Shown: positions 2,309 through 62,480 of the stretch, one piece after another | Position numbering within the stretch: the first letter of the stretch is position 1 | Layout of the letters: every line of letters begins with the position of its first letter | Assembly (NCBI GenBank): GCA_046563655.1 | Contig: CM102283.1 | Location: 682,001-746,000 of the forward strand | From: Yuukianura sp. NJ FZ-2021 | Lineage: Eukaryota | DNA length: 64,000 nt | Direction: 5' to 3' | Position numbers and translations under genes: made by a program | The notes under the pieces: generated by a model | The model's database searches: none | Told to the model about the DNA's origin: nothing | The model's input: the letters and a program-made list of their open reading frames with translations, nothing else

Positions 2309-5300
2309 ATGTTTCGTGGTGGTGAGAGTACATGTTTGCGATGTGCTGATACGGTGTATCCAGTGGACAGGTAATTTTAACCTTGTTTTAAATACGCGCT
2401 GGCGGCGCGGATTTTAGTACTGCTTTTTAGAAATTTTTGAACCGACCAAATCACGATCAGTTTTTGGGGAAAATGAGAAAATAACTTTCGGTTGCGGTTT
2501 CGCTGCGATGTGTTTTGCTTGGGACTAATCGCGACGAAACGAATTTGCAACGTAAAAAGTATTGAATTCGGAATTACCAATTTCACATTGACAATTTGGT
2601 GAGGTTTGATTGAAGTGAAAGACGGAAGTTATAAATTGTGTGGTTAGAGTGGGGACCTCGTGCCTTGAATAACTTAAGGAACGACGATTTGAAATGTTGC
2701 ATAATTACGCAATAGCTGCGCAGAATATGAGCAAAAGTCAATTTTGTTGTAATTTGCATTAGTTTAAAAGTATAATGTGACTTAATTGTTGTTTTTTGTT
2801 TATGACAGAGTTGGTCCTCTCAAAGACTTTTCCTTCTTCCATTCCGGCTGTTTCAAGTGTGTTGTTTGCGGAAGTCGCCTGAGCCTGCGCACTTACTACC
2901 ACTCACAACAGGACCAAGATGACAAGGAAGTCTACTGTATCAGTCACGTGCCCAAAACAGGGCCAGGGCATCTGGACGGCTCAGCAGTCGGCATACGATC
3001 CGCTCTTAACGTTCCACGGAGTTCATCTTATGTGAACGACCAGGTAACCTTGATTTTCAAAAATTTGAAATCTTGTTTGATATTTTTTAACACTTTTGAA
3101 AAATTTGATTCAGATTCGTGGTAACTCCAAGGGGACGTTTGATGCAGACGCTCTCAATATCAAATCTGTAAGGAGAGAAAATGGATCGTCGCCAATGTTT
3201 GACCGCAGCAGTTCTCCCAGTGTCCAGCACCAATTTCAAAATTCCCACCAATTTCAACAGCATTCTCATCCACAACAGAGTCAAGCACAAGGACGTCCTG
3301 GACGACCGCGTTTTGACGCATCGGCACTCCACATTGCGCATGCGCTGCGGGCCACAGAAATCCAGAAAGCGTACAAGAAGGAGAAACCCATGCATTACTA
3401 CTTGGTAAAAAGCAGTTTAAAAAACAACAACATTCCATTTTTGTGTGGGAATTTGTGTGGTTTCAGGTAGCTGTAACTGGTTTTCTTTACATAAAAAAAG
3501 TGAAACGGGATTGATGGGTTGTCATTGTCGATGTGACAGTTGAATGAATGCATTTTGCGGTTGTTGCTAAACTTTTTGCAACAATTAACAAAGAACCACC
3601 ACATTCCTTTTGTTGTTCAGTTATTAATAATTCATGAACAGGCCAAAAATAACGGTAAAATGCATTTTGTGGAAGAATTTGTCTAAGGTGTGAAAAATAT
3701 GCAAAGAGGAAAAACTTGTTTATTAATTTACGATTGTTGTCGATTTATTACCTGTTTGTGCTTAATCGCTGTATTTTTCTTCTTAGGCAAAGGAAGAACA
3801 AACTGAATTGGAGATGCGGCATCGCGTTGAAGAAGATGCTTTGTATAATCGCTTTGCACAAGCCAGAGCGGAAGAAGAAGCCAAAATTACTGCAGAAATT
3901 CGCGAAGAGTGGGAGCGGGAATTGGAAAAATTGGCGTCAAAATTTGAATCTCTCCGAGTCAAAGAGGATCCATTTATGGTACAAAAGCTGAAAGCGAAAG
4001 AACGCGAGGATTTGGAGAGGCACATGACACTGAGGAGAGACAAAAGGAAGGAACTTACAACCCGAAAATTATTGGAACATGAACGGTAAAACTCAAAAAA
4101 AAAATGCAATAATTTTTTATTTTCATGAACGAATTCTGGAATTTATTTTCATTTTTGAATTTTTAGCGCCGCCACGGCCGCTCTGGTTGAAAAGCAGAGC
4201 AAGGAAATGTTGAATTTGATTAACGAACGGAAACGGGAGTTCATTCAGCGCGTTGGCGTAAGCAGCGAAGAGTTGCCGACTCACGAAACAGAACTTTTCC
4301 CGTACCCACCACAAGCTCCACCCCCTGCTCCGTCCAGCATTGAGAAAGTGGATATTTATGGAGACCCGGTGGAATTTTCTGAGGTGGATGAAATTGCCAT
4401 TTCAGTGGCACAAGAAGATCAAAAGACTTTTACAGATTTGGTTCGTAAGTTGCTGAGTCGCTGTGGAACGGATGTCGAAAAAGCTCGGGTAATTTTTCGG
4501 TGGATTACGGTAAAGAACTTGAATGCAATGGATTTTAGTGAAGACGTCAGAACAGACACACCCATGGGGCTGCTTCGAGGCATCAAACAAGTGAGGAACT
4601 TTTTCAAAAAAAGAAAAAATCAGTTTTTCAAAAATGTTTTGTTTTGTAGGGAACAGAAAGCTACCATGTTCTGTTTAAGCGTCTCTGCTCCTACGCCGGC
4701 CTCCATTGTGTTGTCATCAAAGGTCTCTCGAAGTCCGCCGGGTATCAACCCGGACTTCGGTTTTCCGATAACAGATTTCGAAATTCGTGGAACGCCGTGT
4801 TCGTTGCAGGAGCCTGGAGGTAAGCCTACTCTGGTAATAGTAAAATTAAAAAGAAATTTGACCTTTGACCACGATTTTTGTGCAGATTTGTTCAGTGTAA
4901 TTGGGGAGCCCGGCACTTGGTCAATGCCAAAGAACGAGCTTCAAAGTCCGACTCCCTTCGTTACGAATACGACGACCACTACTTTCTCACTGATCCCAAA
5001 GAATTCATCTTTGAATTCTTCCCACAACAAGCCGATTGGCAATTACTCAAAAGACCAATCACAATTCGCGAATTTGAAGAACTACCGTTTGTACGCAGCC
5101 TCTTCTTTCGCTACGGTCTGTACTTTCCATCAGGCCAAAGCAGTGACGGAGTCTACAACAGCCTTGGAGAAATAATTTCTCACTGCAAAGCAGTTATGTC
5201 CACGGACTCTTCAGGTTTTGATTTTTTTTTTCAAATTTTCAAAATTTCTACATTTCGAAATTGTTTTCTTTAAAATTTTTGTGAAATAATATAGGTGCTG

Positions 5301-6520: not shown

Positions 6521-9500
6521 TTACCGCTGTTTCGTTTTCTTCCAGCCTTTTCCAAATTTCTTCCCTTTGTCTTGGTCAGTTTTGGTCTTTTTTGACCCCT
6601 GACCTTCAGCACTATCCTCTTTCGTCGTCAACCTCTTTTCGCCTACTTTGATACTAATTGACTTGGATTCTGTTGAAGTCTGAAGAGCTTGTCGCCAGCT
6701 CTCCTCGCTTCCTTTGATAACGTACTCGCTCAAATCAGCCTTGCGCAGTCGTTCCAACTCCTTGGCCTCTTTGCGACGTAATTCTTCAGCACCAGCCTCT
6801 AACTCCGCCCCTAAACTTTCCGCCAATGGCTTGAAGGCCGGAGTGACGTCCTCTGCTTTATTCAAGTTTTCTTCCAGTGTATCTTCCAGCAGTGTGTTCA
6901 AAAACTGCAGAATTTTTCGGATCGTTTTGTTGAAGAGTCCCAGTAATTGAGTTGCCGGCAGATCAAGCTCCTTCCCTAGCGTTTCCACGGTTTTCTGTTG
7001 CAGGCCCATTCCAAGCAAAACGGCCTAGAGGAAAAAAGAATTTAAATAATTTTTATACAAAATTCACTCGTTTTTAATGTCAATAAGGTTTGCATACGGA
7101 TTGAACAGCTGATAGGTGTGTATCTGCCAGTTTGCCGAGGAAGAACAATTTGGCGAGTGTTGGGAGTAGATCCATGATGAGATGATAGTCTGCCATGTTT
7201 TTCGTGTAGACATCCAGTCGCTTGAGGTCAAACGGCGTGAGGTGAACTCTCAGTTCAGGGACAGTGAGAGGCTCTGGTATGCCAATTGCTTGATTTTTAT
7301 TTTGAAGAAGACTCATGGCCAGAGCTGGTTCAAATGAACTAAACTGGAAGGAGAGGAGGGAGATAAAGCGACGTCTGAAATCTGTCCAGAAGTCCTGCAG
7401 CCACGACCCGCCCCTCTGCCGAGTAGTTTCGTTCTCCAGTTTCTTGAGCATTATGCACGTATGTTCTCCGGTCAAATCATTCGTCGTTTGCCTACAGATT
7501 ATCCAATAATTACTCTTCATACCTCATGTTAGTAAGTTTTTGTTTTTTTTTTTTTTTGCAAAGTTACCAACCTGAGGTAGACTGGTGTAAACCCTGCTCT
7601 CTTCCAGAACTTGAGTAGTGGAAGTGTCACGCCATAGGAAACTCCTAAATAGTCTAACACTTCTGGAGCTCGTTCACTCAGCTTTAGCAACAGAGGTGGC
7701 AAGTTTTTCCTTGGTTCTAGAATTCAAAAATTAACATGGTTAATTACACTAATAAGTTGCCCGCGTGATCCTTAACTTACCGATTGTTTCCTGGAGGAGG
7801 CTCAGCTCCTCGCTTTCTACTACTTCTGCGCTCTCCTTCCCAATTTGAGCGTCCCCGCCTCCAATGTCTATCTTTTCTTCGTAATAATCTTGTAAGAGAC
7901 GAAGGGCTCGTGACCCATACCCCATTGATTGGTAGTCTGAATGAGTAGCAATTCGAACAATTCTAGCTCCAGATAGAGACGGAAAATCTTGATCTTGAAA
8001 CTGCTGTGCTACTGTCCAGGGAATGAGATCTCCAGAGGCCCTTTTCCCTCTCGACAGTGCATCCACTACACTTCGTTTAGAAATCTCACCCTCCAGAGAA
8101 ACCTAACAAACCAGGGACAATGTTAACATAAAAACTTCGTCCAGCAAAATCGGATATGTCTCAGATACTACCTGAATGAGAGCCAATACTTCCGGAAGAG
8201 CCTTTTTGTCTGGATTGACTGGACCAAGGAGACAAAAAAGATGATGCGCAGGGGCATCGCTCATCATCTGGAGGTCATTCGGGGAGTTCTGGAAGGCAAT
8301 AACAAAAATGAAATACATTTCGACTTTCGACATGAATTTTGAGAAGATACTGCCAGTACTTGTACTGAGGTGGCATTCGAATATTATAATTTGGGTCACC
8401 TTATAATGAGAAGCGACGTAGAGTGACACAATTTGCTGAAGAAATGCTTCTGAGGCTTTATGGTAGCAGAAGAGCGTATCTCTGTTGATGTAGTAAAGCT
8501 CGCAAGAAGCCGGAGACGGAAGTCCAGTCGTTAGAGCAGGAGGATTCGTGGCATCAAGGCACAAGACGCCGTTGAGCCAACTCTCCACACCATCTCCGTC
8601 TTTGTAGCGAATCGATTCCTCCAGCGTGATCTAAACAAAGACAACAACAAAAAAGACAATCAGATAAACAACTAACATAAATTAGTTTTTAAACACCCAA
8701 AGAATGTCTACTGCATAACCTCTGTGAGAGTTCGTCCGGAAATGACGGAACGGTCTTTCTGATTTCCTTGTTGAGCTCTACTACCGCTTTGTGTCCGCAG
8801 TTGCTGGATAAGTTTGAGCGACAAAGACCGCCCTGTTCCTTCGTAACCTTTGACAGTAGAGGCCAAGAAGATGAGGCAAGGACCAAAGAGGGACTTGACG
8901 AGAGGAAGTGGAATGGCTGCCGCTTCATCAATTACAACCAACTCAGCATGCCCAAGCTTCGCACTCTCACTGGGATGGATATACTGCAAAGTTAATAAGA
9001 ATTCCGTTTTTTTTTAAATTGCAAGACAAACCAATGCGTATATCTCATTTCATACCTCAATGCATTGTCTGTGATCCCGAAAGAAGGACACTCGCACAAC
9101 GGCCTTCACATCAGCTTCTTTCGATTCCGTAATTTCATAATCAATGTGTTCTTGGTACTCCAGTACATCAAAACCTAAGCAAATCAGAAACGTTAAAAAC
9201 ACGAAGAGTCAAAGTTTTCGTGCACAACTAAAAACACCAACCTTTTAGTATAAACTCGAATAAGGTTTTCAAGTTTTCGGGACTGGGACTCGTAACGTAG
9301 ATGTTGGAGTAGCCGAATGCTATGGCTCCCGCTATTGCAAGTCCTAATGCTGCTGATTTTCCTCTACCACGTCCAGCCGTCAAAGACACAGTCCCAGTCA
9401 GACTCTTCTCCGACAAAACGTCAATAAATTTTAAAACTGCTTTGGCTTGATCCAGAGTTTGACAGCAGTTAAGGAGGACCCCAACTGGCTGCGTGTCCTT

Positions 9501-10602
9501 TAGACTGTTTTTAAGCTCAGCAAGCTCCAGGTCGTGAGCACTCTGTCGAGAAAGACTGGGATCCACGGGTTGAATACTCGCCATGGACGATGAAATTGGA
9601 AGGACGTTGAGACTGTCGTCGATGACGAGGCAACTGCGACATGAAGCAAGAGAGAGCAGGAATCTAGACGAAGTCGAATGAATTCTGTGGTTAAATACAA
9701 AGTACACAGCTCATTCGTTGATAGACAAAGTAAGGGTAAAAATGTCAGAACGGAGTATCGTCAATAAAATCGGATATATGCTTGTCTATTGTAGTTCATC
9801 ATGGTTTACTTACGCAATAACAAAACAGAAAACAAAAAGCATGATGAATTCGTACCTTTCATTAAATCTGCCAACGACATCTTGATGAGCTTCTGTTCGG
9901 AACCTGGCATGAACATCCATACTCATTGTATACAGCTGCTTGAGTGAGTCCATTGTTCTGAGAAGGACAATGACGAGTCCGCCGCCTTCAACAGTCTCCA
10001 CTGTCCTTGCCAAAAGATTGGGTGTCATGGCTTCAAAGTCTTGAAGTACACACATGCCAAAGGTATTTCCAAGGATTTTGTGTGTCTCCGAGTAGTAGCA
10101 GTACCGAATGTTTGTAGAAGCAATGAACAGCTCAAACGGATCGTCCTCGTTTACATCCACCTTTCCGCTCTGGATCTTCCGTTGCAGTTCTCGCATTCTT
10201 TTCTTCCGGTGACTTAAATTTGAAGATGGAGAATTACATTTATTAGTCAACAAAGTCTAAAATGTTACACTTTTGGAATTATGTTGGGACATCACCTGCT
10301 AAACCCTAGTTCCTTTTTGTAGCACCAAAGGACGTTCGGACGAGCTTTGACTGCTGCTTTTGACAGCATATGATGAAGAATAACCACCTAATCCACATAC
10401 AAATTGACCTTTACGAATGATACATTGACCACAAATTATTGTTATTTTTGTACTTCACAAATCAAGATAAGTACTGAAATAATTTACACCTTACCTGATC
10501 TTTGCCTTTATCCCCTACCACTACAAAGAGGGAGCGATGACCTTGTAGTATCCCATTCTCGATTAGAACCCGAATACGATTGTCCACCTTTTTCCGAACC
10601 AT
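6521..10602 (-). CDS. NAT10: RNA cytidine acetyltransferase (NAT10/Kre33), about 12 exons
   Basis: Starts MVRKKVDNRIRVLIENG. Contains ILGNTFGMCVLQDFEAMTPNLLARTVETVEGGG, Walker A TAGRGRGKSAALG, DEAAAIP, GYEGTGRSL, acetyl-CoA motif RIVRIATHSDYQSMGYGSRA, a tRNA-binding region (NMADYHLIMDLLP) and a Lys-rich tail. Confidence 0.97.
9740..9808 (-). ncRNA. Intronic box C/D snoRNA, SNORD27/snR74-like, predicted guide for 18S rRNA Am27/Am28
   Basis: Minus strand reads ATGATGA (box C, 9796-9802), actacaat, AGACAAGCATAT, at, CCGA (D'), TTGACGA (C'), tactccgtt, CTGA (D, 9745-9748). The 12-nt element is complementary to conserved 18S 5' AUAUGCUUGUCU, and the D'+5 rule lands on A27 (human numbering). It lies in the longest NAT10 intron (9664-9855), ~80 nt from the acceptor. 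Confidence 0.88.
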
Positions 10603-40291: not shown

Positions 40292-43200
40292 ATGAGCAAT
40301 CGAGGCAACATGATCCGGTCATGGAGAAACGAGGATGGGACTGAAGCGACGGAGTCCCGCAGCTACTCGTCGTCACACCAACAGCGACAAGTTTCCAAGG
40401 GCGTTCACTCTACGACGACAACCACCAGTTCTAGTTCAAATGGAGGAGCTCCGCACATGGTAACATTTTTCAAAATTTCAGAAAAAAAAAACTGAGTTTA
40501 AAAAGTTTTTCAAACGATGTTAGTAGTATCAGTTGAACTTTAACTGGAAATGCGAAATTTTATCCGCAGACACTGTACAACACGGTGATTGAAGAAAAAA
40601 TTGTGATTGAACAAATCGACAATAGCGCTGCCAAGTTAGCCGAACAACTCAGGGTAAGCTGAAGCCACATTTTGAAAGAAAAAAAGTGTGGAGAATTTGT
40701 TTTTGAATTTCATGAGATGGTGAAATTTTTCGAAAAATATTATTCGTAGTTGTCGATTGAGGAAAAATTTCGAAACTTGTCAAGCACTGTTCAAGATTTG
40801 CTGCAGTGGTTGAAGTCCATTGAGAAAGAATTGGGAAAGCAGGAACCACTACGGGAATTTCTGGAAGGGCTCAAAGCTCAAATCAGCTCTCTCAAGGTAA
40901 ATCGGAAAAAAACTTTCAAAATTTTGAAAATTGTTTTTCTGAAATAGGTATTCATAAAATTTAGCTTTGCATTGTGCTATGAAAGAATTTCAAATTTTGG
41001 ACAGATTTTTGCCAAAAGTTGGCCTTGAAAATCACTTTAAAAAATCTTTTGAAAGTGATTTAATTTTTCCGCTGTTTTTAGAGGTTTAAAGATGTAACGC
41101 GGGATTGGAACGTTGAATCCGATTTTAATTGTCAATTTTGTTTAATTTCGATTGATGAGATTTTTTTGTTGCAAATTCATAACTTTTTTTTATATGTCTG
41201 ATCTAGTTCATCCACGATGATTTATGGAGCCATGGGGAGGATGTGAACTCAACATTTGCCCAAATAAGGACAGTCATCGCGGAGAGCACGACGCTTTCTG
41301 CGCAGAACGTCTCTACTTTGGAAGAGTATGGAACTCAGCTTAAGACGAGATACGACCGAGCAGAAAATGCCGCCGATCAGCTTCTGCGCAAGTCCACCAC
41401 TGCCTATGAGGAACTCAACAAATACAGGCAAGAAAGGTCAAAGGTCAACCAATCTCTACTTTCTTAACTTTGAAAATTTCTGCTTGAATAGCACGGAGAA
41501 AAATGTGTTTCGTGATTGGCTAAAAACGAGTTGCCAAAAGCTGGTTGAAATTGAGCAGAAGATTGAGTCTGGCACTATGAAACAACCAGAAAAAGTGCGG
41601 GAATTTGTGAACGACGTCAATTCGCATAAGGCAGAACTCCGGTTTTTGGAAATGAATGCCAACAGATTCACGGAAACTACGCAGGTCGGAAAACTTTTTT
41701 TTATTACAATATATTTGAATTGATTTATTTTATGTTATTTTTAACAAAAATCAAATAAACAAGGTTGTTATTTAAAACTCAGGATTATTTGACGACATTG
41801 AACGAAATCCGCGCCAAATTGTCTCAAAGGCTTCCAGCCCTTCGAAAGAAGGGGTCAGAAGTTCAAGATGAGTTCAAAGAAATCAGCAGTGTCTACCACG
41901 TAAGCAAATTGCAACTTTGAAATTTTGAAACTTTTATTAAAGTTTTGATTTTTTTTTGAAAAAAATTTAGGACTTGTTGGGTCGAGCCAACAAGTTGATG
42001 GATTCGATGGACTTCAAATCGCGGCAAAGAGAATTTCAAACAAAAGTGGACGAAGCGGTGACTTGGCTTAAAGCAATGACTCCACGCGTCCAAAAATTGA
42101 TTGACGAGCCGCTCCGAACGAAACCGAAGGAAGCCGAAGAACAAATTCGTCGGGCCAAAACAATAAGTGACGAGATTTTTGCCAACCGTGGTTTGATCAC
42201 CGCCGTCAAAAATGTGAGAAACAACTAATTTTCAGGACGTTTTTTTTCTACTTATTTTTTGTTTTGAAATTTCAAACTTTTTGAACTTTTCCAAAATAAT
42301 TGAAATTATTTTTTAGGCTGGAGATAATTTGAGCCGTGATTTACCACCGAGTGAGAGCGCCGCAGTGCTCAAGACTTGCAAAGACCTGGAAGAGCGTTAC
42401 GACAGTCTGGTGACGAATGTGAATTCGAAATTGCGTGAGCTCGAATCAGGAGCAACATTGGTCGGAAAAATTGACGAAAATTTGAAATCAATTCGCGCTA
42501 TTTTGGATCGAGAGGAAGGCAGACTTCCAGCGAGTGCAGTCGGAGCGACACCGAGAGAAGCCGACAGCATTGCCCAGACGCTGCAACAAATCGTACGCAC
42601 ACTTGAAGACAACACAAACCTTCTGGATACTACGCGGTCCTTCATCAATGAACTTCTGCGTAAAGGTCAAGGGAACGAAGGGCTGCGTTCAGAGTTTGTT
42701 GGCCTTCAGGATCGGTGGTCAGCCTTGGATAAAACGGCACGTGACCGTCTCGGCTTTTCCGACACCATCCGAAAATTTTACGAATTAAGCCATTCATTGA
42801 CGTCGTGGTTGGACTCTAAAGAAAAGTTTTTGAATTCAATTCAAGGTGACCCACTTCACCAAATTCAGCAGCTGAAAACACTCAAGAACGACTTCAAAGC
42901 ACAGACGCCAAAATTAAATGAACTCAACAGCCTCGGTGAAGCGCTTCTGCGTAGAGCCAATTTGACCAATCCGGAACGATCTGCCATTGAAGAGACGCTG
43001 GCTACGCTGACTAAACGCTGGAACGACGCTTTGGCTGAAATTGACGCACGGAGGGCTCTCGCAGAAGCTCTTTTAGATGCTCGTGGAAACTTTGACAAAA
43101 ATTGTTCCCGCATTGAAGAGGCGCTGCGCCGGATCAATGAAGATTTGGACACGCTTGGGCAAGAAAGAAACAAGCTCCGTCCAGAAGCATTGTTGAAGCA

Positions 43201-46200
43201 AATCAGAAGTTTAGAAAAACTGCTCAACGCTCAAGCAGGACCAATCGCATCTTTGGAAGCAGCTGGACAGAAGCTTATCGAAGAACTGACCGATTCAGCC
43301 TCAAAATCCGAAGTTAAGACGAAGTTAGCCGGGATTAGCCGACTGTACGACCAATGTTCAAAGAAACTCGAGTCACTTCGGAAAATTGTCGAGGCGGCAG
43401 AACGAGATGCACAAGAATTCAATGAAGCATGTGCAGGATTACAGAAATGGGTAGATTCGCTCTTGCCAAAATTCGACAACGTTTCGATTTCAGCCGATCG
43501 ACCAACCTTGAAAGAACAGGTTTCCATTTACGACAAAGTTGCCAATGAAGTTTTGGCCAAAAAAGTAGAAGTTACCAGGTTGGCCACAAGAGGAAAAGAA
43601 TTTGATTCTCCCGCGCTCCAAAATTTGATGCAAAGTTGGGCAACTCTTGAAAAGGAAGCGACCTCTACACGCAGTCGCGTAAACAAAGCATACGACAACT
43701 GCTTGAAATACGACAAATTGTACCAACCATTTGCTACTTGGTTGTCCACTGCCATTGCTAAGCTAGAGAGTATCAGTTTAGACAGTTTGAAAAAGACGGA
43801 TTTGGAACGGATGCAGCGGGAACTTTCGGATTTGAAAAAAGATTGTGGACGGCGGGCGCATGAGTACAGTGACGTAGAAGCTGCTGGCAATGCCTTCCTG
43901 GCTGCTTGTGACCGAGACAAAGAAGAAGTCAGAAATGAGCTGAGGTCACTCAAAGACGGCTGGGAAGCTTTGCAAAACGGCTTGGACAAACGGCTCGCTC
44001 GACTCACGGAAATCTCCGACAAACTCCGAGCGTTTCACGAACATGTTGCAAGTACAAAAAAGACGTTGGATCGCTGCGACTCGGAATTGGAGACTGCAAG
44101 TGCTGGCTCCAAGTTGAAAGCAATTGCAGACGAGTTGGGGCAACTTGAGAAACGGATTGACGGAATCAAGCGAGAAGGAGACATTCTCTGTCGCCTGGGT
44201 GACGAAGAGGGAGCTGACACAGACAATGTCACTAAAACCGTAGATGACCTCTACGCTCGTCTGGGTCAACTTCGATCAAAGTTGAATTCTCGCTCTGACA
44301 ATTTGGAAGCAGAACAAAAGGCTTTGGCTCTTTGCCAAGAGAAATTTAGAGAAATTAATTCAAATTTAGCCGCTCTTGAATCAGAACTTGATGGAATGAA
44401 AGGGATTGGGCGAGAAATTCCAGTCGTTCAGAGTCAAATTAGCACCATGACAGATTTCAAACGGCGTTTGCGCGAAGAGCAAGATCAATTTGAACATCTT
44501 ACGCGCCATGTTGAGCAGTTAGGTCAGCGCGGAACCGACATCACGCGCCTCAAGCCGCAACTTGAAGAAATTCGCAAGAAACTGGGAACGATCAACACCA
44601 AAAGTTCAACTCGCTCGACTGACCTTGATGCTATGTTGAAGAAGTTACAGGAATTTTACAAATTGTATAGAGCTACTGACGATGAGTTGAGTAGCATTCT
44701 ACGTAAGGAAGCAAATACTGAAACTGCGCAGGCGCTGGATGAACTCAAGCGTCGCGAAGTTTTTGCAACTGGTAAGAAAGTTGAAGAAGTGAATACAATT
44801 GGACGCGGACTGATCAAATCAGCATCTAGCGGTGTTAGCACGAATTTGCTGGAAACGGATTTGGAAAAACTGAATGAAAAATGGAAATTAATCAATGACA
44901 GAGTAAGTCAAAAATTTGATGTAAAAACAAATTTTTCATAATAATCATCAAGTAAAAATAAATTCTTTTAAAATTTAATTGTCTCCGAAATTCCAGATTG
45001 CTGAAAAGAAGCGAATGTTAGAAAATCAACATTTGAAGGGAAAGCAATTTGATGACGCCGTGGCCCAATTCATGGCTGCGTTGAAACACCTCGAATCGCT
45101 ATTGGTTGACGATGGGCGTGTTCATGGTGACGTCGATACGGTCAAACCACTGGTTGCCCAACACAAGGTATTTTTTCAAAATTTCACATTTACAATTTCT
45201 AAATTTTCACTTCAAATAATTTTTGAAACTTTTTTCTTAGAAAGTTGAAGACCAACTATCTACTCGTCGAGTTCAACTGCAGAACATCGTAAAGTCGGCA
45301 GCCGAACTATTGGAATCTACAAATTCAATTGACGAAAAAACCAAAATTTCAAATCACGTTTCCAACGCCAAAGACGCTTTTGATAAGGTCAAGACAAAAG
45401 TGGATCGTAGAACACAGAAGTTAGACAGCGCAATGAGAGATGTGAGTTCAAATCCAGCCGTCTCTTAAAAATTTTATTGTAGCTCAAATATTAACTCTTA
45501 TGTATTCGCAGGCTGAAAAATTGAATGCGTCTATTCACTCAATGCTGGAATGGCTGGCAGTTGCTGAAAAAAAGAAACGAACGTTTCCGGATTCGATCCA
45601 GGGGCTCGATGAAACCAATTCTGTAAAACTGCTGGAAGAACATGAAAAGTAAATAGTACATAACACCAACACAACTACGCGGGAATTTCAATTTTTGTGT
45701 TTAAACTATTTAATTTTCAGATTTTTAAGAGATATGGAGCGAAAAGAAAGTGAAAAAGACGCGACGCTGGAATTTGCCCGTGAAATTTTGGCAAAGGCTC
45801 ATCCCAATGCCGTGAGTACAATCAGAAACTGGATTTCGACGATTGAGAGCAAATGGGCTGACCTCTGGAGTTGGATCAACAAGCAAAGGTCAAAATTATT
45901 GGACCATTTGACCTCTCTGCGTGAATCTACTGATCTACTCAAGGAACTTCTGACGTGGTTGCGCAAGAGGGAAGAGACACTCAAGAGAGTCGATGCAAAA
46001 GCACTGCCAAGCGATTTGGACGAACTCCTGCTTCTTATTAGAGTATGAAAATTACTACTCAATTTAACTCTTGTTTTGAACAGTTTTCAGGTTTTTTAGA
46101 ATCAAAAAAGTCTAGTTCAAAAATTTCCTCCGAAACTTTATATTTTCATAAAACATTTAGGAACACAATGAGTTTATGGAAAGTGTTGACGGAAGACAAG

Positions 46201-55033: not shown

Positions 55034-56200
55034 TCAGCCGCTGTAACCTCGCGATGCCACTTCGGAATGTCCTGGATTGTTATACCCTTGTGGCGGCCCA
55101 ACTGGATACATTCCACCCCCTGCGACTGCCGGATTGCCGGCGGGTGCGGCTGGTGGACTGTAAGCTGCCATTGACCCAGCAGGATTTGAATTGCCAGCAG
55201 GATTTTGGGCATAGGCCGGGTTTTGTGCAGGATCAGTTGCAGGATTGGTCATGGATTGTGCTGGTGCATAGTTTGATGCAGAGGCTGCAGGATTCTGTGC
55301 AGAGGCAGCGTTAGCGGTTGCGGCTGAAGGATTGTATGCTGCTGCTGAGTTTGAGGCGCCATCTTGCGGAGCAACTGGAGCAACTGGAGCTACGGTGGAG
55401 GCCTGCGGGATTTCAGGAACTGCGGGAACATTTCCTGTGCTGGCAGGATTTGCATTTGGGCTGACGTAACTCTGCGGTTGTGGTGGGTTATACCCTTGAT
55501 TCTGCACAGGATTCTGGGGCGTAGGTGGCGGGTTGTAGCCTGGGTTCTGAGCTGGATTGTTCGGAATAGGTGGTGGGTTGTAAGAAGCTGCGTTCTGTGG
55601 AGGATTATAGGACGTTGGTGGGTTATAACTTGCAGGATTCTGGGCAGGATTGTTTGGCACGGCGGGTGGAGTGTAACCAGGATTTTGAGCAGGATTCGAA
55701 GCAGTAGCTGGATTATAACCTTGATTTTGTGGAGGGCTATATGCAGTGGAAGGTGGATTGTAGCCAGCATACTTCGCAGGATTGTTCCCTTGATTCTGGC
55801 CATTGTTGTCCCCTTGACTGTTGGCATTGTTGTTCCCTTGATTCTGACCATTGCTGTTCCCTTGGTTCTGTGCAGGATTGTTGCCTTGATTCTGTGCATA
55901 GTTGTTCGGAATACCAGGCGGAGTATAGCCAGCATTCTGCGCAGGATGACTCGGAACGCCTGGTGGGGCGTAACCTTGAGTCGGAGCAGCAGGAGCATAC
56001 CCTCCTTTAAAACAAAAATCAATTTAAAAAAATCTTAGAAACCTTTTTCAACAAAGTGAATTAAAAATTTGGCTCTTTTAAACACAGTTTTTTAGCTGAA
56101 GATATTTGCCCGGCATTACAAGTGTACCTTGAGGAGCCGAATGCACGCTATTAGCCATAGTAGCGCCGATGATTAGAAATACAGCAAATATTTTCGTCAT
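55034..56200 (-). CDS. Secreted Pro/Asn/Gln/Ala-rich low-complexity repeat protein (cuticle/matrix-like), 2 exons
   Basis: Signal peptide MTKIFAVFLIIGATMANSVHSAPQ is spliced to an exon with repeated PAQN(Q/P/A)GYNPP units, ending ...SRGYSG*. Confidence 0.8.
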
Positions 56201-57968: not shown

Positions 57969-60788
57969 ATGGATTGTTTTCAAAACTTGATACTGTTTTT
58001 GGTTGTTTCAGGAGTGAGGACCGATAGGCACATCACTGTAAGTAACATTAGCCTTGGCTACGCAGGATACTAAAACATGATAAATAAATTTATATGCAAA
58101 TATAAAAATTAAATACATAATTATATAATCTAATTTTGGTTGTACAGGAACAGAATATCATAATAAAAGGAAACCAAACTTTTCTGGAGGATTTAGAAGG
58201 CGTGGGAAAAATTTTAACTGTCGATGGGCAGTGCCCACTAATACATTTCGAATTGCACTTCGTTCGAGTGAGGCGGTCCGTAATTGCAAATTTTCTATTG
58301 AATTGTACTAATTTGAAAACTCTGATTTTGCAAAAAGTGGAGTGGGAGTGGGAAACTGAAGCGAATTTTGAAAGGATTCCCCTTCCAAACTTAAAAAAGT
58401 TCGAATTTTCTCTAAGATACGTTAATGATCAGCCCGTTCGTTGGAGCATCGCCGAAACCCTGGAATTGACCAATTTCTTCTATACAAATGCTACTAACAG
58501 AAGCGAAGGAATTTTAGCATTCCAAAATCTGGAATTTGATATTTCGTTGAATACGGGATACGAATCTTTGCAAATGCGCAATTCGAGGTTGGCGGATGGA
58601 GTTTTTCGTGTGGTAACTTTATCAGTTGAGAATGTACATTTAAAGACACTTGGAGACAGGGACATTTGGAGACTCTTGTACAGCAAGAGTCCATACATTG
58701 AAAAATTCACCGCACGGTACTGCACTATTGACGTCAAGTTGTTGACCTTGACCTCTGTCAAAGAGTTGACCTTGTGGTACAACGACCTCATCGGCGGCAC
58801 ATTGTCACAACTTATCAAGTCAGCCGTTGTCCTTGAACGGTTACGGATTTATAGCAAAGTTCATGAAGCAATTGACGTCGCACTTCTTCCCACCAAATCA
58901 CTCGTAGAAATTGATACAAAATCGTTGAGTTTCAGATACAACTCGGTTCCTCCTCACTTGCAACAACAGTTCACACATCTACGCAGGATAAGCGTTTCCT
59001 CTGCTGACCTTGACCTTAACGTTTTTAATTTATCCAAGAAATTTACAAGTTTTGAACTACAGAATTCCTTTTGTGGAACAAATTACATGACATAAATTAC
59101 GAATTGACAACACTGACCATCGACTGTCAGTATTTTGACGAAGAATGTCCTATAGTTGAGCTGGACACACCTCAAATGCGGTCTTTGGGAACTTTACATT
59201 TATATTTCGTTGAAGTTCGAGCCAAGAAGTTACCAGTTTGGTTGAAATTGAGAACCTTGATGCTAGTGAGATGTACAATTGAAGACACCATTTTAGACAA
59301 TTTTGGTCGAATTTTTCCAAGTGTAACTGGTGTTGTATTGGATATGGAGGATGTTTTATCCGAAAAGATACTTTTGGTAGTTGTTAAACTTCGGCCTCAG
59401 TTCATCGGTATGTACATGGCAGGCTTTGACCCAGGAGCTAAGGTCAAAGCTCAATTAGAAACAACATTCAAAACAATATTAAACGCAACATTTACTTACA
59501 GCGGTTTTACGGAAGGAATGTTATGCATGTTTTATTTAAACGGTTCAGCTGGGTACAGGTATGCTAGTCACATCGACTATGTTCGGCTCCCTAAACGGTA
59601 CAGAATTGTGGATCTTTTGGAACTGCATGGATTCTTGGCAAGGAAATTTAGCTCAACATTGTTGTCTCAAATTCACAACACTTACATGACGTTTGTTTAC
59701 TGTATTTGTGGATTTGGACTTGTTTGTAACTGCTTAAGCATCGTTGTGCTCGTGCGTAAAACAATGCGCAGCTCTACAACTTTACTCCTTTTTGCACTCA
59801 CGTGCACGGATTCAGTGTACTTGATTACGGCAATTATTTCGACGGAGGAATTCAGTAATTTGTTTCAAGAATATTTCCGGCGCTCTAATTTAAACGGATA
59901 CGTCGCATACCCAGTCAACAAAACAAGTAAAAACTCAATTTTAAAATTAGAAAAGCAAAGCAAATGCATGAAATTTGTATGTTTGATATATGTGATGTTT
60001 TAGTGTACACGGCGTCGGTGTACATGACGATTTTGATTACTGTGGAACGTTTTATTGCAACTTCGAAACCAATTCAAGCATCATCAATTTTTACAACACG
60101 CAAAGCACGACGTTATACACTGATAGTATTTGGATTTGCAACATTTTTGAATTTACCGCGATGGTTGGAATTTGTAAAATTCCAACCATCGAAGCTTCGT
60201 CTCCTGAGTGGAGTAAATACTTCCCGCGTCAGTTGCACAAATTTCCACTTTACCAAATCATTTACCAGCAACTGCTCTGGTATCTATGTATCTACCTCGT
60301 TCCCTTTGTTACCATCGTTACACTCAACATACTCATCATTGCAGCGGTAAATTTTTAACGACAATTATAAAAAGACAAAACTAAAGTAGTAAAATGCATT
60401 ATTAATGGTTGTTTATTAGGTAACCAATGCAGCAAAAGAACGGCAACGCACTGCAGTAACACAGAATACTGCGCATGACAATTCCTTGAACAGAATGTTG
60501 CTAACAGTTGTTTTTGTGTTTATTTTGTGTAACTCTTTGGCTGCTGCACTGGAACTCAACTTTATTTTGAAAGGAGTTGAGCCTGAAGTTGCAGCCACAA
60601 TAGTTGGTCTACCCATACTGGTCAATTCAGCTGTCAATTTCATCCTCTACTGCATTCTCGGCAGGAAATTTCGCGGCGAATTGAAACTTGTAGTTGCAGA
60701 AATTGGAACATGGATTCGATCTATATGCACTCGTAGAATAATAGACAGGTCTAATTCAATTGAGTTGAGGCAGCATAGGGTCAGGTAG
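57969..60788 (+). CDS. Rhodopsin-class peptide GPCR (FMRFamide-receptor-like 7TM) with signal peptide and ~500-aa LRR-like ectodomain; two single-base frameshifts (pseudogene or assembly error)
   Basis: Signal exon MDCFQNLILFLVVSGVRT; LxxLxL repeats (NLKTLILQ, LPNLKKFEF, SVKELTLWYN, LERLRIY, LRTLMLVRC). TM1 GLVCNCLSIVVL, TM2 LTCTDSVYL, TM3 ITVERFIA, TM4 LNLPRWLE, TM5 LVPFVTIVTLN, TM6 VFVFILCN, TM7 NSAVNFILYC. Frame breaks near 59070 and 60175. Confidence 0.78.
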
Positions 60789-62222
60789 TAAGCAACACCA
60801 TGATACATACACAATTACAAAAACTTAAAACGGAAAACCGATACTACAAATTCGTATACTAATTAAATTCACTAATTTACTTCACCAATAATACTTCACT
60901 CAATAAAATTTGTTTCATTTCGTTGCTCAATTTTTGGCAAAATTTTGAAAAAATCATTCTTACATTTACTTTTGGAGGAATTGGAGTTTTGAAAAATTCA
61001 GCTGAAATTCGACTTTTGGATGTATTTGACTGACGGAAAATTCACGCGTACTTTAACTTCTCGACATGTTTGTCTGGTGATAAATTCACCCGTACTCTAG
61101 CTTTTTGATGTGGCGAAATTTTGAAAAATTCACTTTTACACTTACTTTTGGAGAAATTGGAATTTGGAAAAACTCTCGAAATTTGTTCCCAAGAGCTACT
61201 GCCGCCTAGGGCTTCCACCAAAATGTTGCCACGAATGGTGGGATCACGCTTTGGTGGGTTTCATTGGGGCGTTCATGTGAAATTCAAAAATAAAGCCACT
61301 TGAAATTGAAATGCACAAATTTTTCAATTTTTTCGACATTTCAAATCCAACTCTCGAATTTTTTTCCCCAAATATCGTTGAAATGTCGTTTAAATATTTA
61401 GTGATCATTAAAACGATACACAGTAAATAGTGATTAGGACTATTGAACGGGTCTGGGGCGGAGCCCCAGCAAGCTTTGTGCTGTAAAGCTGGTTTTTAAA
61501 TAAAAACGTTTGGGAAAAATTTGCTAATGATTTAAGGAATAAATTTTTCCTTTACTTCGTTAGTCTAATTTTTGTAGAACGTTGTGACTACAAACAACCA
61601 AGGAAAGAAATGTAAAATTTGTAGTTCTTTTTATCTGAAAAAAATCGATACGAGAATTTTTTCAATAATGAATCCTTTTTTCTTAATCATTACAATGATT
61701 TAAAAAATTTCTGGGTTTTAATTATAGTCCCATGCGCGGAGTTAATTTGTAATTGTTTTGTCATATCACGTTCCGTTTTGTCTCATTACAAAAACTTGCT
61801 CGTCATATTACATTTTCAACAGTATATTTTGCACATTTCAAATAAAATTTTGAAATTCATATTTTTTTTTCTCGACTGTTAACTCAGAAAATGTGGAGGA
61901 TTACTTCAAACCGCGCGGTGTAATGTTGTAATACTGTATATAGGAATAAACTGGAAGTGAGCAAATGGAGGATCTTGGTTTCTGAGTTGAATTGAAATTG
62001 GCACCCGAAAACCGCAAACAAGAAAAGCCGGGTATTTTCGTGACCCCAATTGGCACTTGAAGCCAAAAGTTAATTAAATTAAGGAAACGAGGTCACAAAT
62101 TTCGAGTCATTAAATTGACCTGCGGAAGCCCTTTATAAATAGAAACTTTGAGTGAATTTGTTTCGTCTCCTGTTTCAAATAGAATTTTGGTCTGGTAAAG
62201 TGGGTTCTCAGAAAACTTAAAA

Positions 62223-62480
62223 ATGAAGGTTGCAATTATTTTGGCTGTCGTTGGAGTAGCTCTGATTGGTGGAGCCTTTGGAGGCGAAGCATCCAATCAC
62301 CGTGCGATTCTGTGCGAAGACAAGAACGTGATTGAATTCTGGGAGTCAGATGACCTTCTGGACTTCCACTGTTTCTGCAAGGACACTTCTTGGTTCTGGT
62401 GCAGAAAGGAAGCCAAACCAGCAGAGTCAAATGGATCCGAAGAGGGTGACCTCGGTGTCTCCATCCCCGCTGGACACTAA
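62223..62480 (+). CDS. Small secreted 4-cysteine protein, single exon
   Basis: Signal peptide MKVAIILAVVGVALIGGAFG, AAAATG start context and TATAAATA ~90 nt upstream. Confidence 0.7.
   Translation: MKVAIILAVVGVALIGGAFGGEASNHRAILCEDKNVIEFWESDDLLDFHCFCKDTSWFWCRKEAKPAESNGSEEGDLGVSIPAGH

Follow-up and report, generated by a model that had tools for sequence, protein, structure and literature searches.

The window analysed here is a stretch of 64,000 nucleotides (nt) of contig CM102283.1 from Yuukianura sp. NJ FZ-2021 (positions 682,001 to 746,000 of the contig). On its forward strand, at positions 57969 to 60788, it carries a locus that probably represents an undescribed family of class A G protein-coupled receptors (GPCRs), where a signal peptide and a solenoid of leucine-rich repeats (LRRs) are joined to a seven-transmembrane domain (7TM) of the FMRFamide-receptor/Srw type, the copy in the window being most likely a pseudogene. 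The window is eukaryotic DNA of about 39% GC with short GT-AG introns. The gene is compact and consists of four exons, which encode in turn the signal peptide, an ectodomain of about 510 residues together with the transmembrane helices TM1 and TM2, the helices TM3 to TM5, and the helices TM6 and TM7. A preliminary description had given the same limits, and the ATG was indeed found at 57969 and the end of the TAG stop codon at 60788.

The gene appeared as a chain of stop-to-stop open reading frames (ORFs). The chain is opened by a short ORF containing the ATG and a hydrophobic N-terminus, with the core ILFLVVSGV (mean hydropathy of 2.9 over 9 residues), and is continued by ORFs at 58121-59095 (324 amino acids, aa), 59056-60003 (315 aa), 59931-60350 (139 aa, overlapped by a 120-aa ORF at 59996-60358) and 60420-60788 (122 aa). 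The preliminary description had reported LxxLxL repeats together with TM1 and TM2 in one ORF, preceded by about 320 aa of further LRR-like sequence and a signal-peptide exon. About 200 leucine-rich residues are in fact followed by both helices in one frame within ORF 59056-60003, but the repeat motifs themselves were at chance level. The upstream sequence (ORF 58121-59095) and the signal-peptide exon (57969-58037) are also present, but the former lies in a different frame owing to a frameshift. Exon 2 ends in a phase-1 donor directly after a conserved NKT, and the GC content of the three introns was 20.5 to 23.6%, versus 39.5 to 41.7% in the exons. TM1, TM2, TM5, TM6 and TM7 were located by hydropathy (TM5 in the frame of ORF 59996), and TM3 and TM4 by alignment to positions 61-160 of the Pfam family 7tm_1. 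The seven hydrophobic helices stand in class A order, in a chain that is interrupted by two frameshifts in the window. The upstream signal peptide and the basic residues after TM1 indicate that the N-terminus is outside.

Relatives were sought with phmmer, using the 290-residue piece encoded by 59056-59926 as the query against 1.84 billion cluster representatives. Ten matches were obtained at E<=1e-3. Proteins P0001 to P0004 aligned to query residues 3-290, covering the ectodomain and TM1-2 together, and P0001 is a single ORF of 587 aa that spans both. The alignment of P0006 was confined to query residues 184-290. P0007 to P0010 matched mainly TM1-2, with 280 to 400 further N-terminal residues in P0007 and P0010. 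P0005, a repetitive protein, looked spurious. All eight relatives that were looked up are singletons from JGI/IMG metagenomes. A scan of metagenome contigs matched 53 stretches, five of which were confirmed as related loci (L001 to L005), all from one metagenome. Every recovered exon of L001, L002 and L003 is open, and their spliced models comprise 825, 774 and 604 aa, respectively, without a stop codon. Exon 2 of the window gene is colinear with the homologues over query residues 3-290 and also over its N-terminal half, and its TM1-TM2 helices align with those of homologues matching positions 2-53 of the Pfam Srw profile. The positions and phases of the two downstream introns are identical in the window and in L001 to L003. 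Upstream of the big exon and before the homologous acceptor, L001 and L004 contain a short exon with a methionine, a hydrophobic stretch and a GT donor.

A search with a profile of TM3-5 yielded four longer proteins (P0131, P0132, P0133 and P0134). P0131 is one ORF of 694 aa comprising ectodomain, TM1-2 and TM3-5, and it was 25.7% identical to the L001 model over the ectodomain and TM part (E 2.6e-23). At residues 527-555 or thereabouts, the gene caller translated the intron after the conserved NKT in frame as part of the ORF. The first extracellular loop (ECL1) of P0131 exceeds that of the window gene's subfamily by about 40 residues, as does that of P0007, P0008 and P0010.

In L001, L002, L003, P0131, P0010 and P0007, the ectodomain and TM1 occur in one ORF of 387 to 694 codons, at pairwise identities of 22 to 42%. 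Because the relatives keep the ectodomain and TM1-2 in one frame and share intron positions, the fusion of an LRR ectodomain to a 7TM is regarded as a conserved architecture in divergent relatives. The locus could alternatively consist of two genes, one for a secreted LRR protein and a second for a separate FMRFamide-type GPCR with a short N-terminus, whose transcript would start at about 59.6-59.7 kb. A methionine directly before TM1 would suit such a start, and in the assembled sequence the first frame is closed at 59093-59095, which would leave a secreted LRR fragment of 338 aa. However, about 200 further ectodomain codons are open in the frame of TM1 and homologous to the ectodomains of the relatives. 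The long ORFs of the six relatives would not last without selection: if about 5% of codons were stops, 480 codons would stay open with an estimated probability of the order of 1e-11. Two separate genes are hard to reconcile with a fusion that is conserved across paralogues of such low identity, and this explanation is hardly credible.

Structure prediction gives the ectodomain the form of an LRR solenoid, in line with the preliminary description. An AlphaFold2 model of the big exon of L001, calculated from a 9-row alignment, reached a predicted local distance difference test (pLDDT) score of 80.0 and a predicted template modelling (pTM) score of 0.72. The model shows about 18 short strands at a spacing of about 24 residues up to residue 464, then a short helix, TM1 (residues 489-523) and TM2 (residues 529-562), with a linker of about 25 residues between the solenoid and TM1. 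A Foldseek search with this model matched 75 chains of the PDB at E<=0.001; the matches listed were all LRR proteins, including TIR1, COI1, Roco, Toll-like receptors (TLRs), LGR5 and LRRC8. With VIA-align, 50 of the 50 matches listed were LRR proteins (Z 13.8-16.8, over model residues 1-464); Z values this large are common for repeat proteins and indicate the fold class, not the subfamily. The window's own 307 residues (58148-59068; 6-row alignment) were modelled with a pLDDT of 75.1 and a pTM of 0.73. Comparison of this model with 48,161 representative chains, independently of Foldseek, gave 43 chains at Z>=8, with osteomodulin (Z 12.1), FBXL17, APL1B, a Leptospira LRR protein and the LGR5 ectodomain in the top rows. 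A few of the rows were unnamed subunits of large assemblies, and all recognisable top matches were LRR proteins. The Z values differed by no more than about 2 units between very different classes of LRR, so that no subclass stood out. In the ESM Atlas, the ectodomain piece of the window gave weak leads to F-box-type LRR clusters (scores of 0.87-0.94, with shared features well under 170), and P0001 gave no usable match; plant F-box-associated LRRs are the group indicated by the weak leads from Pfam and the Atlas. The ectodomains contain 4 to 7 cysteines in total, including one conserved CxxxxxxC pair in the middle of the domain. No cysteine-rich caps or hinge were seen: six alignment columns had cysteine in at least three main rows, and none of them falls in the stretch from the last repeat to TM1, one being within TM1 itself. 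Seven N-glycosylation sequons were counted in the window ectodomain, and their enrichment was not significant.

The class of the 7TM was determined with Pfam profiles and sequence searches. Window ORF 59931-60350 scored 30.6 bits with 7tm_1 (PF00001), barely over the cut-off of 30.5, and 25.2 bits with Srx (cut-off 23.8). Both profiles also matched TM3-5 of the homologues. The 7tm_1 scores of the homologous TM3-5 exons were over the cut-off for L002 and L005 (31.7 and 31.9 bits) and under it for L001 and L003 (25.3 and 28.6 bits), and P0131 reached 42.6 bits. Srw (PF10324; cut-off 22.2 bits) was over the threshold on single exons of P0001 (25.0), L002 (27.2), P0010 (23.0) and L005 (TM6-7, 22.7), and under it for L003 (18.8 and 21.4), P0007 (20.4) and L002 TM6-7 (18.6). 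In the homologues, TM6-7 corresponded to Srw profile positions 215-317. Srw-type receptors are nematode relatives of FMRFamide and other peptide receptors. Among the longer proteins found with the TM3-5 profile, P0132 is unnamed and matches Srw, P0133 is an 'FMRFamide receptor-like' protein of Gigantopelta aegis, and the cluster of P0134 includes an 'FMRFamide peptide receptor frpr-18-like' protein and a 'Similar to FR FMRFamide receptor' protein of Tigriopus californicus; the names of the P0133 and P0134 relatives are automatic annotations of their sources. Exon 4 of the window matched P0133 in BLASTP with an E value of 4e-10, the stretch of TM7 and helix 8 being nearly identical. The spliced homologues matched their nearest named relatives over about 300 residues with E values of 1e-19 to 5e-29, and the whole 7TM aligned at 26 to 33% identity. 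Among the 60 listed matches of the profile to PDB sequences, neurotensin receptor 1 was closest (E 1.4e-8), followed by neuromedin-U receptor 2, GPR139, V1a and the ghrelin receptor. Like its FMRFamide-receptor-like relatives, the 7TM keeps the motifs usual for coupling, namely N (TM1), D (TM2), ERF (TM3), P (TM5) and NFxxY (TM7). The 7TM is accordingly assigned by its sequence to class A, FMRFamide-receptor/Srw peptide-receptor type, the group to which the nearest annotated relatives belong.

Several results weigh against this reading of the window copy. The counts of LxxLxL-type motifs were at the level of shuffled sequences; for example, 16 motifs compared with 12.7+/-3.2, a number reached by 93 of 500 composition-preserving shuffles. 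No Pfam LRR model reached its threshold on the window pieces (best scores of 15.4 and 14.3 bits; cut-off 27), and the homologues also stayed below it (LRR_4 with 24.3 bits on P0001, cut-off 27, and 19.5 bits on P0007). The ectodomain is thus read as LRR because of its predicted structure and not because of motifs, and both structure models came from shallow alignments (9 and 6 rows). The window's own pieces of exon 2 and exon 4 reached no Pfam threshold for Srw or LRR, and no Srw match was obtained on any window piece. The window copy was placed in the family by 28 to 44% identity to the homologues and one BLASTP match. A word-indexed search with the family profile gave P0001 alone among 8000 candidates, so that little can be said of how large the family is and how far it extends.

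The chain of ORFs is interrupted at two sites. The ORFs of 324 and 315 aa share 40 nt but are read in different frames; the upstream one is closed by a TAA at 59093-59095, and the protein alignment across this site is continuous in L001 to L004. At the second site, in the extracellular loop between TM4 and TM5 (ECL2), L001, L002, L003 and L005 have a single frame across the point of the shift. Because the homologues read continuously and in one frame at both sites, both breaks are interpreted as frameshifts, and the break between the 324-aa and the 315-aa ORF is accordingly not attributed to an intron. Splicing could in principle restore the frames by removal of introns at 59021-59130 (110 nt) and 60174-60232 (59 nt), giving a shorter open receptor. 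Both candidates are GT..AG stretches with a length of 2 mod 3, and the donor GTAAAA at 60174 resembles the real donors of the gene. The donor GTTTTT at 59021 is poor, however, and GT/AG pairs of suitable phase would be expected by chance near any site. The two candidates have GC contents of 30.9 and 47.5%, versus those given above for the real introns. Neither occurs in L001 to L005, where the stretches are coding, and their removal would delete the conserved residues LWNS, the first cysteine of CxxxxxxC and EASSPxWS..PRQ. Frame-restoring introns were rejected on these grounds and are very improbable.

As assembled, translation from the ATG ends after 338 residues. Since two frameshifts break it, the assembled copy would be unable to produce the fused receptor and could at most yield a secreted LRR fragment of that length. 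The gene may nevertheless be intact in the animal and encode a working LRR-GPCR of about 853 residues, the frameshifts being consensus errors or confined to one null haplotype. In favour of this possibility, and against a pseudogene, none of the three reading-frame segments contains an in-frame stop, and sequence conservation with the homologues extends as far as each of the shift points. Each lesion is one small indel, and no more than 10 nt away from either site there is a run of four nucleotides (TTTT or AAAA), of the kind that also gives rise to consensus errors in long reads. The other genes of the window served as a control of assembly quality. The multi-exon gene of NAT10 (RNA cytidine acetyltransferase) at 6569-10602 on the reverse strand was without frameshift in comparison with two reference proteins; over about 1000 codons the frame changed solely at gaps of 61 to 190 nt, with contiguous query coordinates. 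The 874-codon ORF at 42317-44941 was open throughout. Two errors per about 2.6 kb would predict about four errors in these two controls. The family also decays, as two of the five related loci are damaged. In L004, a stop codon interrupts the ectodomain in frame (3567-3569) and the region from the end of TM3 through TM4 is deleted (about 4854-4931); this locus is considered a pseudogene of the metagenome organism. In L005, the ectodomain is frameshifted at about 520-535. Finally, four positions that are invariant in four homologous exons are changed in TM3-5 of the window copy (V17, C20, F21 and R24, around the ERF motif in TM3 and the second intracellular loop). An intact gene is therefore possible but doubtful. 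The unshifted state of the other genes in the window and the damage to two of the five related loci favour a true pseudogene or null allele over an assembly error, and the window copy is most likely a recently inactivated pseudogene. As it is probably dead, its annotation as a functional receptor would require support from reads.

LRR ectodomains on class A GPCRs are textbook knowledge for the clade of the leucine-rich repeat-containing GPCRs (LGRs) only, that is, the glycoprotein-hormone receptors, LGR4-6 and the relaxin receptors RXFP1/2. Like these, the present family would combine a signal peptide, a large LRR ectodomain and a class A 7TM in one chain, presumably with the same logic of a ligand on the LRR arc and a signal to the 7TM, and the ectodomains of LGR4/LGR5 were among the structural matches (Z 15.1 with the L001 model and Z 11.2 with the window model). 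The preliminary description had set the gene apart from classical LGRs, and the matches listed agree with this: among them the 7TM is nearest to the neurotensin, neuromedin-U, GPR139 and ghrelin receptors, it matches Pfam Srw/Srx instead, no LGR was among the best 60 of the 89 PDB matches at E<=1, and cysteine-rich LRRNT/LRRCT caps, a cysteine hinge and an LDLa module are absent. The linker to TM1 is also unlike that of LGRs, with just about 25 residues in the L001 model. With the FMRFamide receptors, FMRFamide peptide receptors (FRPRs) and Srw-type receptors, the family shares ERF/ERY in TM3, NS..NF..Y in TM7 and PRxFE after TM4 (seen in P0132 to P0134), and the same pair of Pfam profiles (PF10324 and PF00001) matches the controls P0133 and P0134 over their whole length. 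The short N-termini ascribed to FMRFamide-type receptors in the preliminary description were confirmed in these two annotated relatives, in which TM1 starts at about residue 70-80, in contrast to the signal peptide and LRR domain of 460 to 510 residues found here. The predicted solenoid with repeats of about 24 residues resembles those of TLRs, internalins, small leucine-rich proteoglycans and FBXL2/FBXL17; unlike in those proteins, it is joined to a 7TM, and its Pfam LRR matches are all below threshold.

In the parts of the literature covered, which did not extend to supplementary tables, no LRR domain joined to an FMRFamide-receptor/Srw-type 7TM was found. As far as these sources go, LRR-bearing receptors of the rhodopsin class are of the LGR type only, apart from one orphan in Ciona. 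In the portion of the Ciona repertoire consulted (PMC2396169), this orphan is a GPCR with an N-terminal LRR whose TM region is unlike that of relaxin receptors, and the supplementary domain tables of that study might bear on novelty. The favoured reading is that the window family is an LRR-GPCR assembled independently of the LGRs on a different 7TM. A second union of an LRR solenoid with a 7TM, in this case of the FMRFamide/neurotensin-like branch, would show that evolution can arrive at this architecture repeatedly. Such receptors would also serve as a natural experiment on how a bulky ectodomain lacking the LGR hinge can gate a 7TM whose usual ligands are small peptides in a helical pocket. 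A lineage-specific receptor architecture, as had been suggested beforehand, agrees with the conserved fusion and with relatives in environmental contigs only, but the window copy itself is broken. The family is visible in eukaryotic metagenome contigs and the window alone and would thus mark an animal lineage with a receptor repertoire outside the annotated databases.

In intact members, the N-terminus would be exported, as suggested by the signal peptide and the basic residues after TM1. It would form a solenoid of about 460 to 510 residues with roughly 18 repeats and without cysteine-rich caps or hinge, ending about 25 to 45 residues before the 7TM. The LRR arc would most likely capture an extracellular protein or peptide ligand, perhaps from another organism, and the short cysteine-free linker would set the arc directly over the extracellular loops. 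The linker and loops could then switch the 7TM so that a G protein is activated; such coupling is plausible because the 7TM keeps the usual coupling motifs. L002 (203-2004) and L005 (1-1801) share 88% nucleotide identity and are considered a recent duplicate or allele pair. Between them, the ratio of nonsynonymous to synonymous substitution rates (dN/dS) was 0.80 for the ectodomain before the L005 frameshift, 0.39 for the second part of the ectodomain with TM1-2, 0.23 for the TM3-5 exon and 0.38 for the TM6-7 exon, values that come from one close pair of which one partner is frameshifted. This pattern agrees with a recognition surface that evolves fast and is carried by a conserved transducer, and it is the sole hint of the role in immune or chemical sensing that the preliminary description had suggested as possible. 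An unlikely but attractive extension is G protein-coupled pattern recognition, in which a diversifying LRR arc, under birth-and-death evolution of the family in which pseudogenes arise often, would sense foreign macromolecules (microbial, prey or conspecific) through a 7TM of the peptide-receptor type. If true, a Toll-like sensing surface would have been wired to heterotrimeric G proteins, independently of the LGRs, in a poorly sampled animal lineage.

Table 1. Features of the receptor gene, in window coordinates.
Feature	Position	Strand	Remarks
Exon 1	57969..58037	+	ATG, 23-residue signal-peptide-like N-terminus, phase-0 GTAAGT donor; read from sequence
Intron 1	58038..58147	+	110 nt, GTAAGT..ACAG, 23.6% GC; acceptor at homologous place in L001 and L004
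Exon 2	58148..59926	+	predicted LRR ectodomain to ~59600, short linker, TM1, TM2, start of ECL1
Frameshift 1	59056..59074	+	-1 at ~59062 (or within TTTT 59069-59072); 35 nt vs 36 in L001 between aligned blocks
TM1	~59680-59763	+	hydropathy; residues 209-236 of ORF 59056-60003 piece
TM2	~59779-59844	+	hydropathy; residues 242-263 of ORF 59056-60003 piece
Intron 2	59927..60003	+	77 nt, GTAAAA..TTTTAG, phase 1, 23.4% GC; position and phase as in L001, L002, L003
Exon 3	60004..60346	+	TM3 with ERF (DRY-type) motif, TM4, ECL2, TM5; Pfam and 55-56% identity to homologue exons
Frameshift 2, ECL2 (between TM4 and TM5)	60186..60190	+	EF-to-EASS spacing 17 nt vs 15 nt (5 codons) in all five homologues
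Intron 3	60347..60419	+	73 nt, GTAAAT..TTATTAG, phase 0, 20.5% GC; position and phase as in L001-L003
Exon 4	60420..60788	+	third intracellular loop, TM6, TM7, helix 8/C-tail; 46-52% identity to homologue exons
TM6	~60483-60572	+	hydropathy, exon 4
TM7 with NSAVNFILY motif	~60588-60665	+	hydropathy, exon 4
Stop codon TAG of TM6-7 exon	60786-60788	+	read from sequence
AATAAA, candidate polyadenylation signal	60903..60908	+	115 nt past the stop; putative function

The paralogue search proposed in the preliminary description was run within the window, where tblastn with all exon pieces gave no second copy of the gene. Comparison of the five related loci with the window by tblastx showed no credible synteny outside the gene, and the ORFs on either side of it in L001, L004 and L005 yielded no indication of the lineage. 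Within the gene, tandem and dispersed repeats were limited to short pairs at chance level, and Rfam gave no match across the whole window. An inverted repeat of 26 nt (58208-58233 and 59111-59136, 81% complementary) lies inside the ectodomain exon and is probably due to chance; its reverse strand translates to the same nine residues.

Further genes were noted elsewhere in the window. One exon of the NAT10 gene had best matches of 67 to 77% identity, across vertebrates, springtails and a mite. Overlapping ORFs at 4159-5273 on the forward strand contain a sequence that appears by eye to be transglutaminase-like/kyphoscoliosis-peptidase-like. The 874-codon open exon, also on the forward strand, is spectrin-repeat/plakin-like, and ORFs at 41268-41723 and 45653-46048 are probably further exons. 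A 329-codon ORF (55034-56023) that immediately precedes the receptor gene but lies on the opposite strand encodes a low-complexity protein rich in Q, N and P with NPPQNQGYNP-like units, and it includes tandem repeats of 24, 45 and 48 nt at 55480-55907. Downstream of the receptor gene, a small ORF on the forward strand (62199-62480) has a signal-peptide-like start (MKVAIILAVVGVALIGG) and several cysteines and may be one exon of a gene for a small secreted protein.

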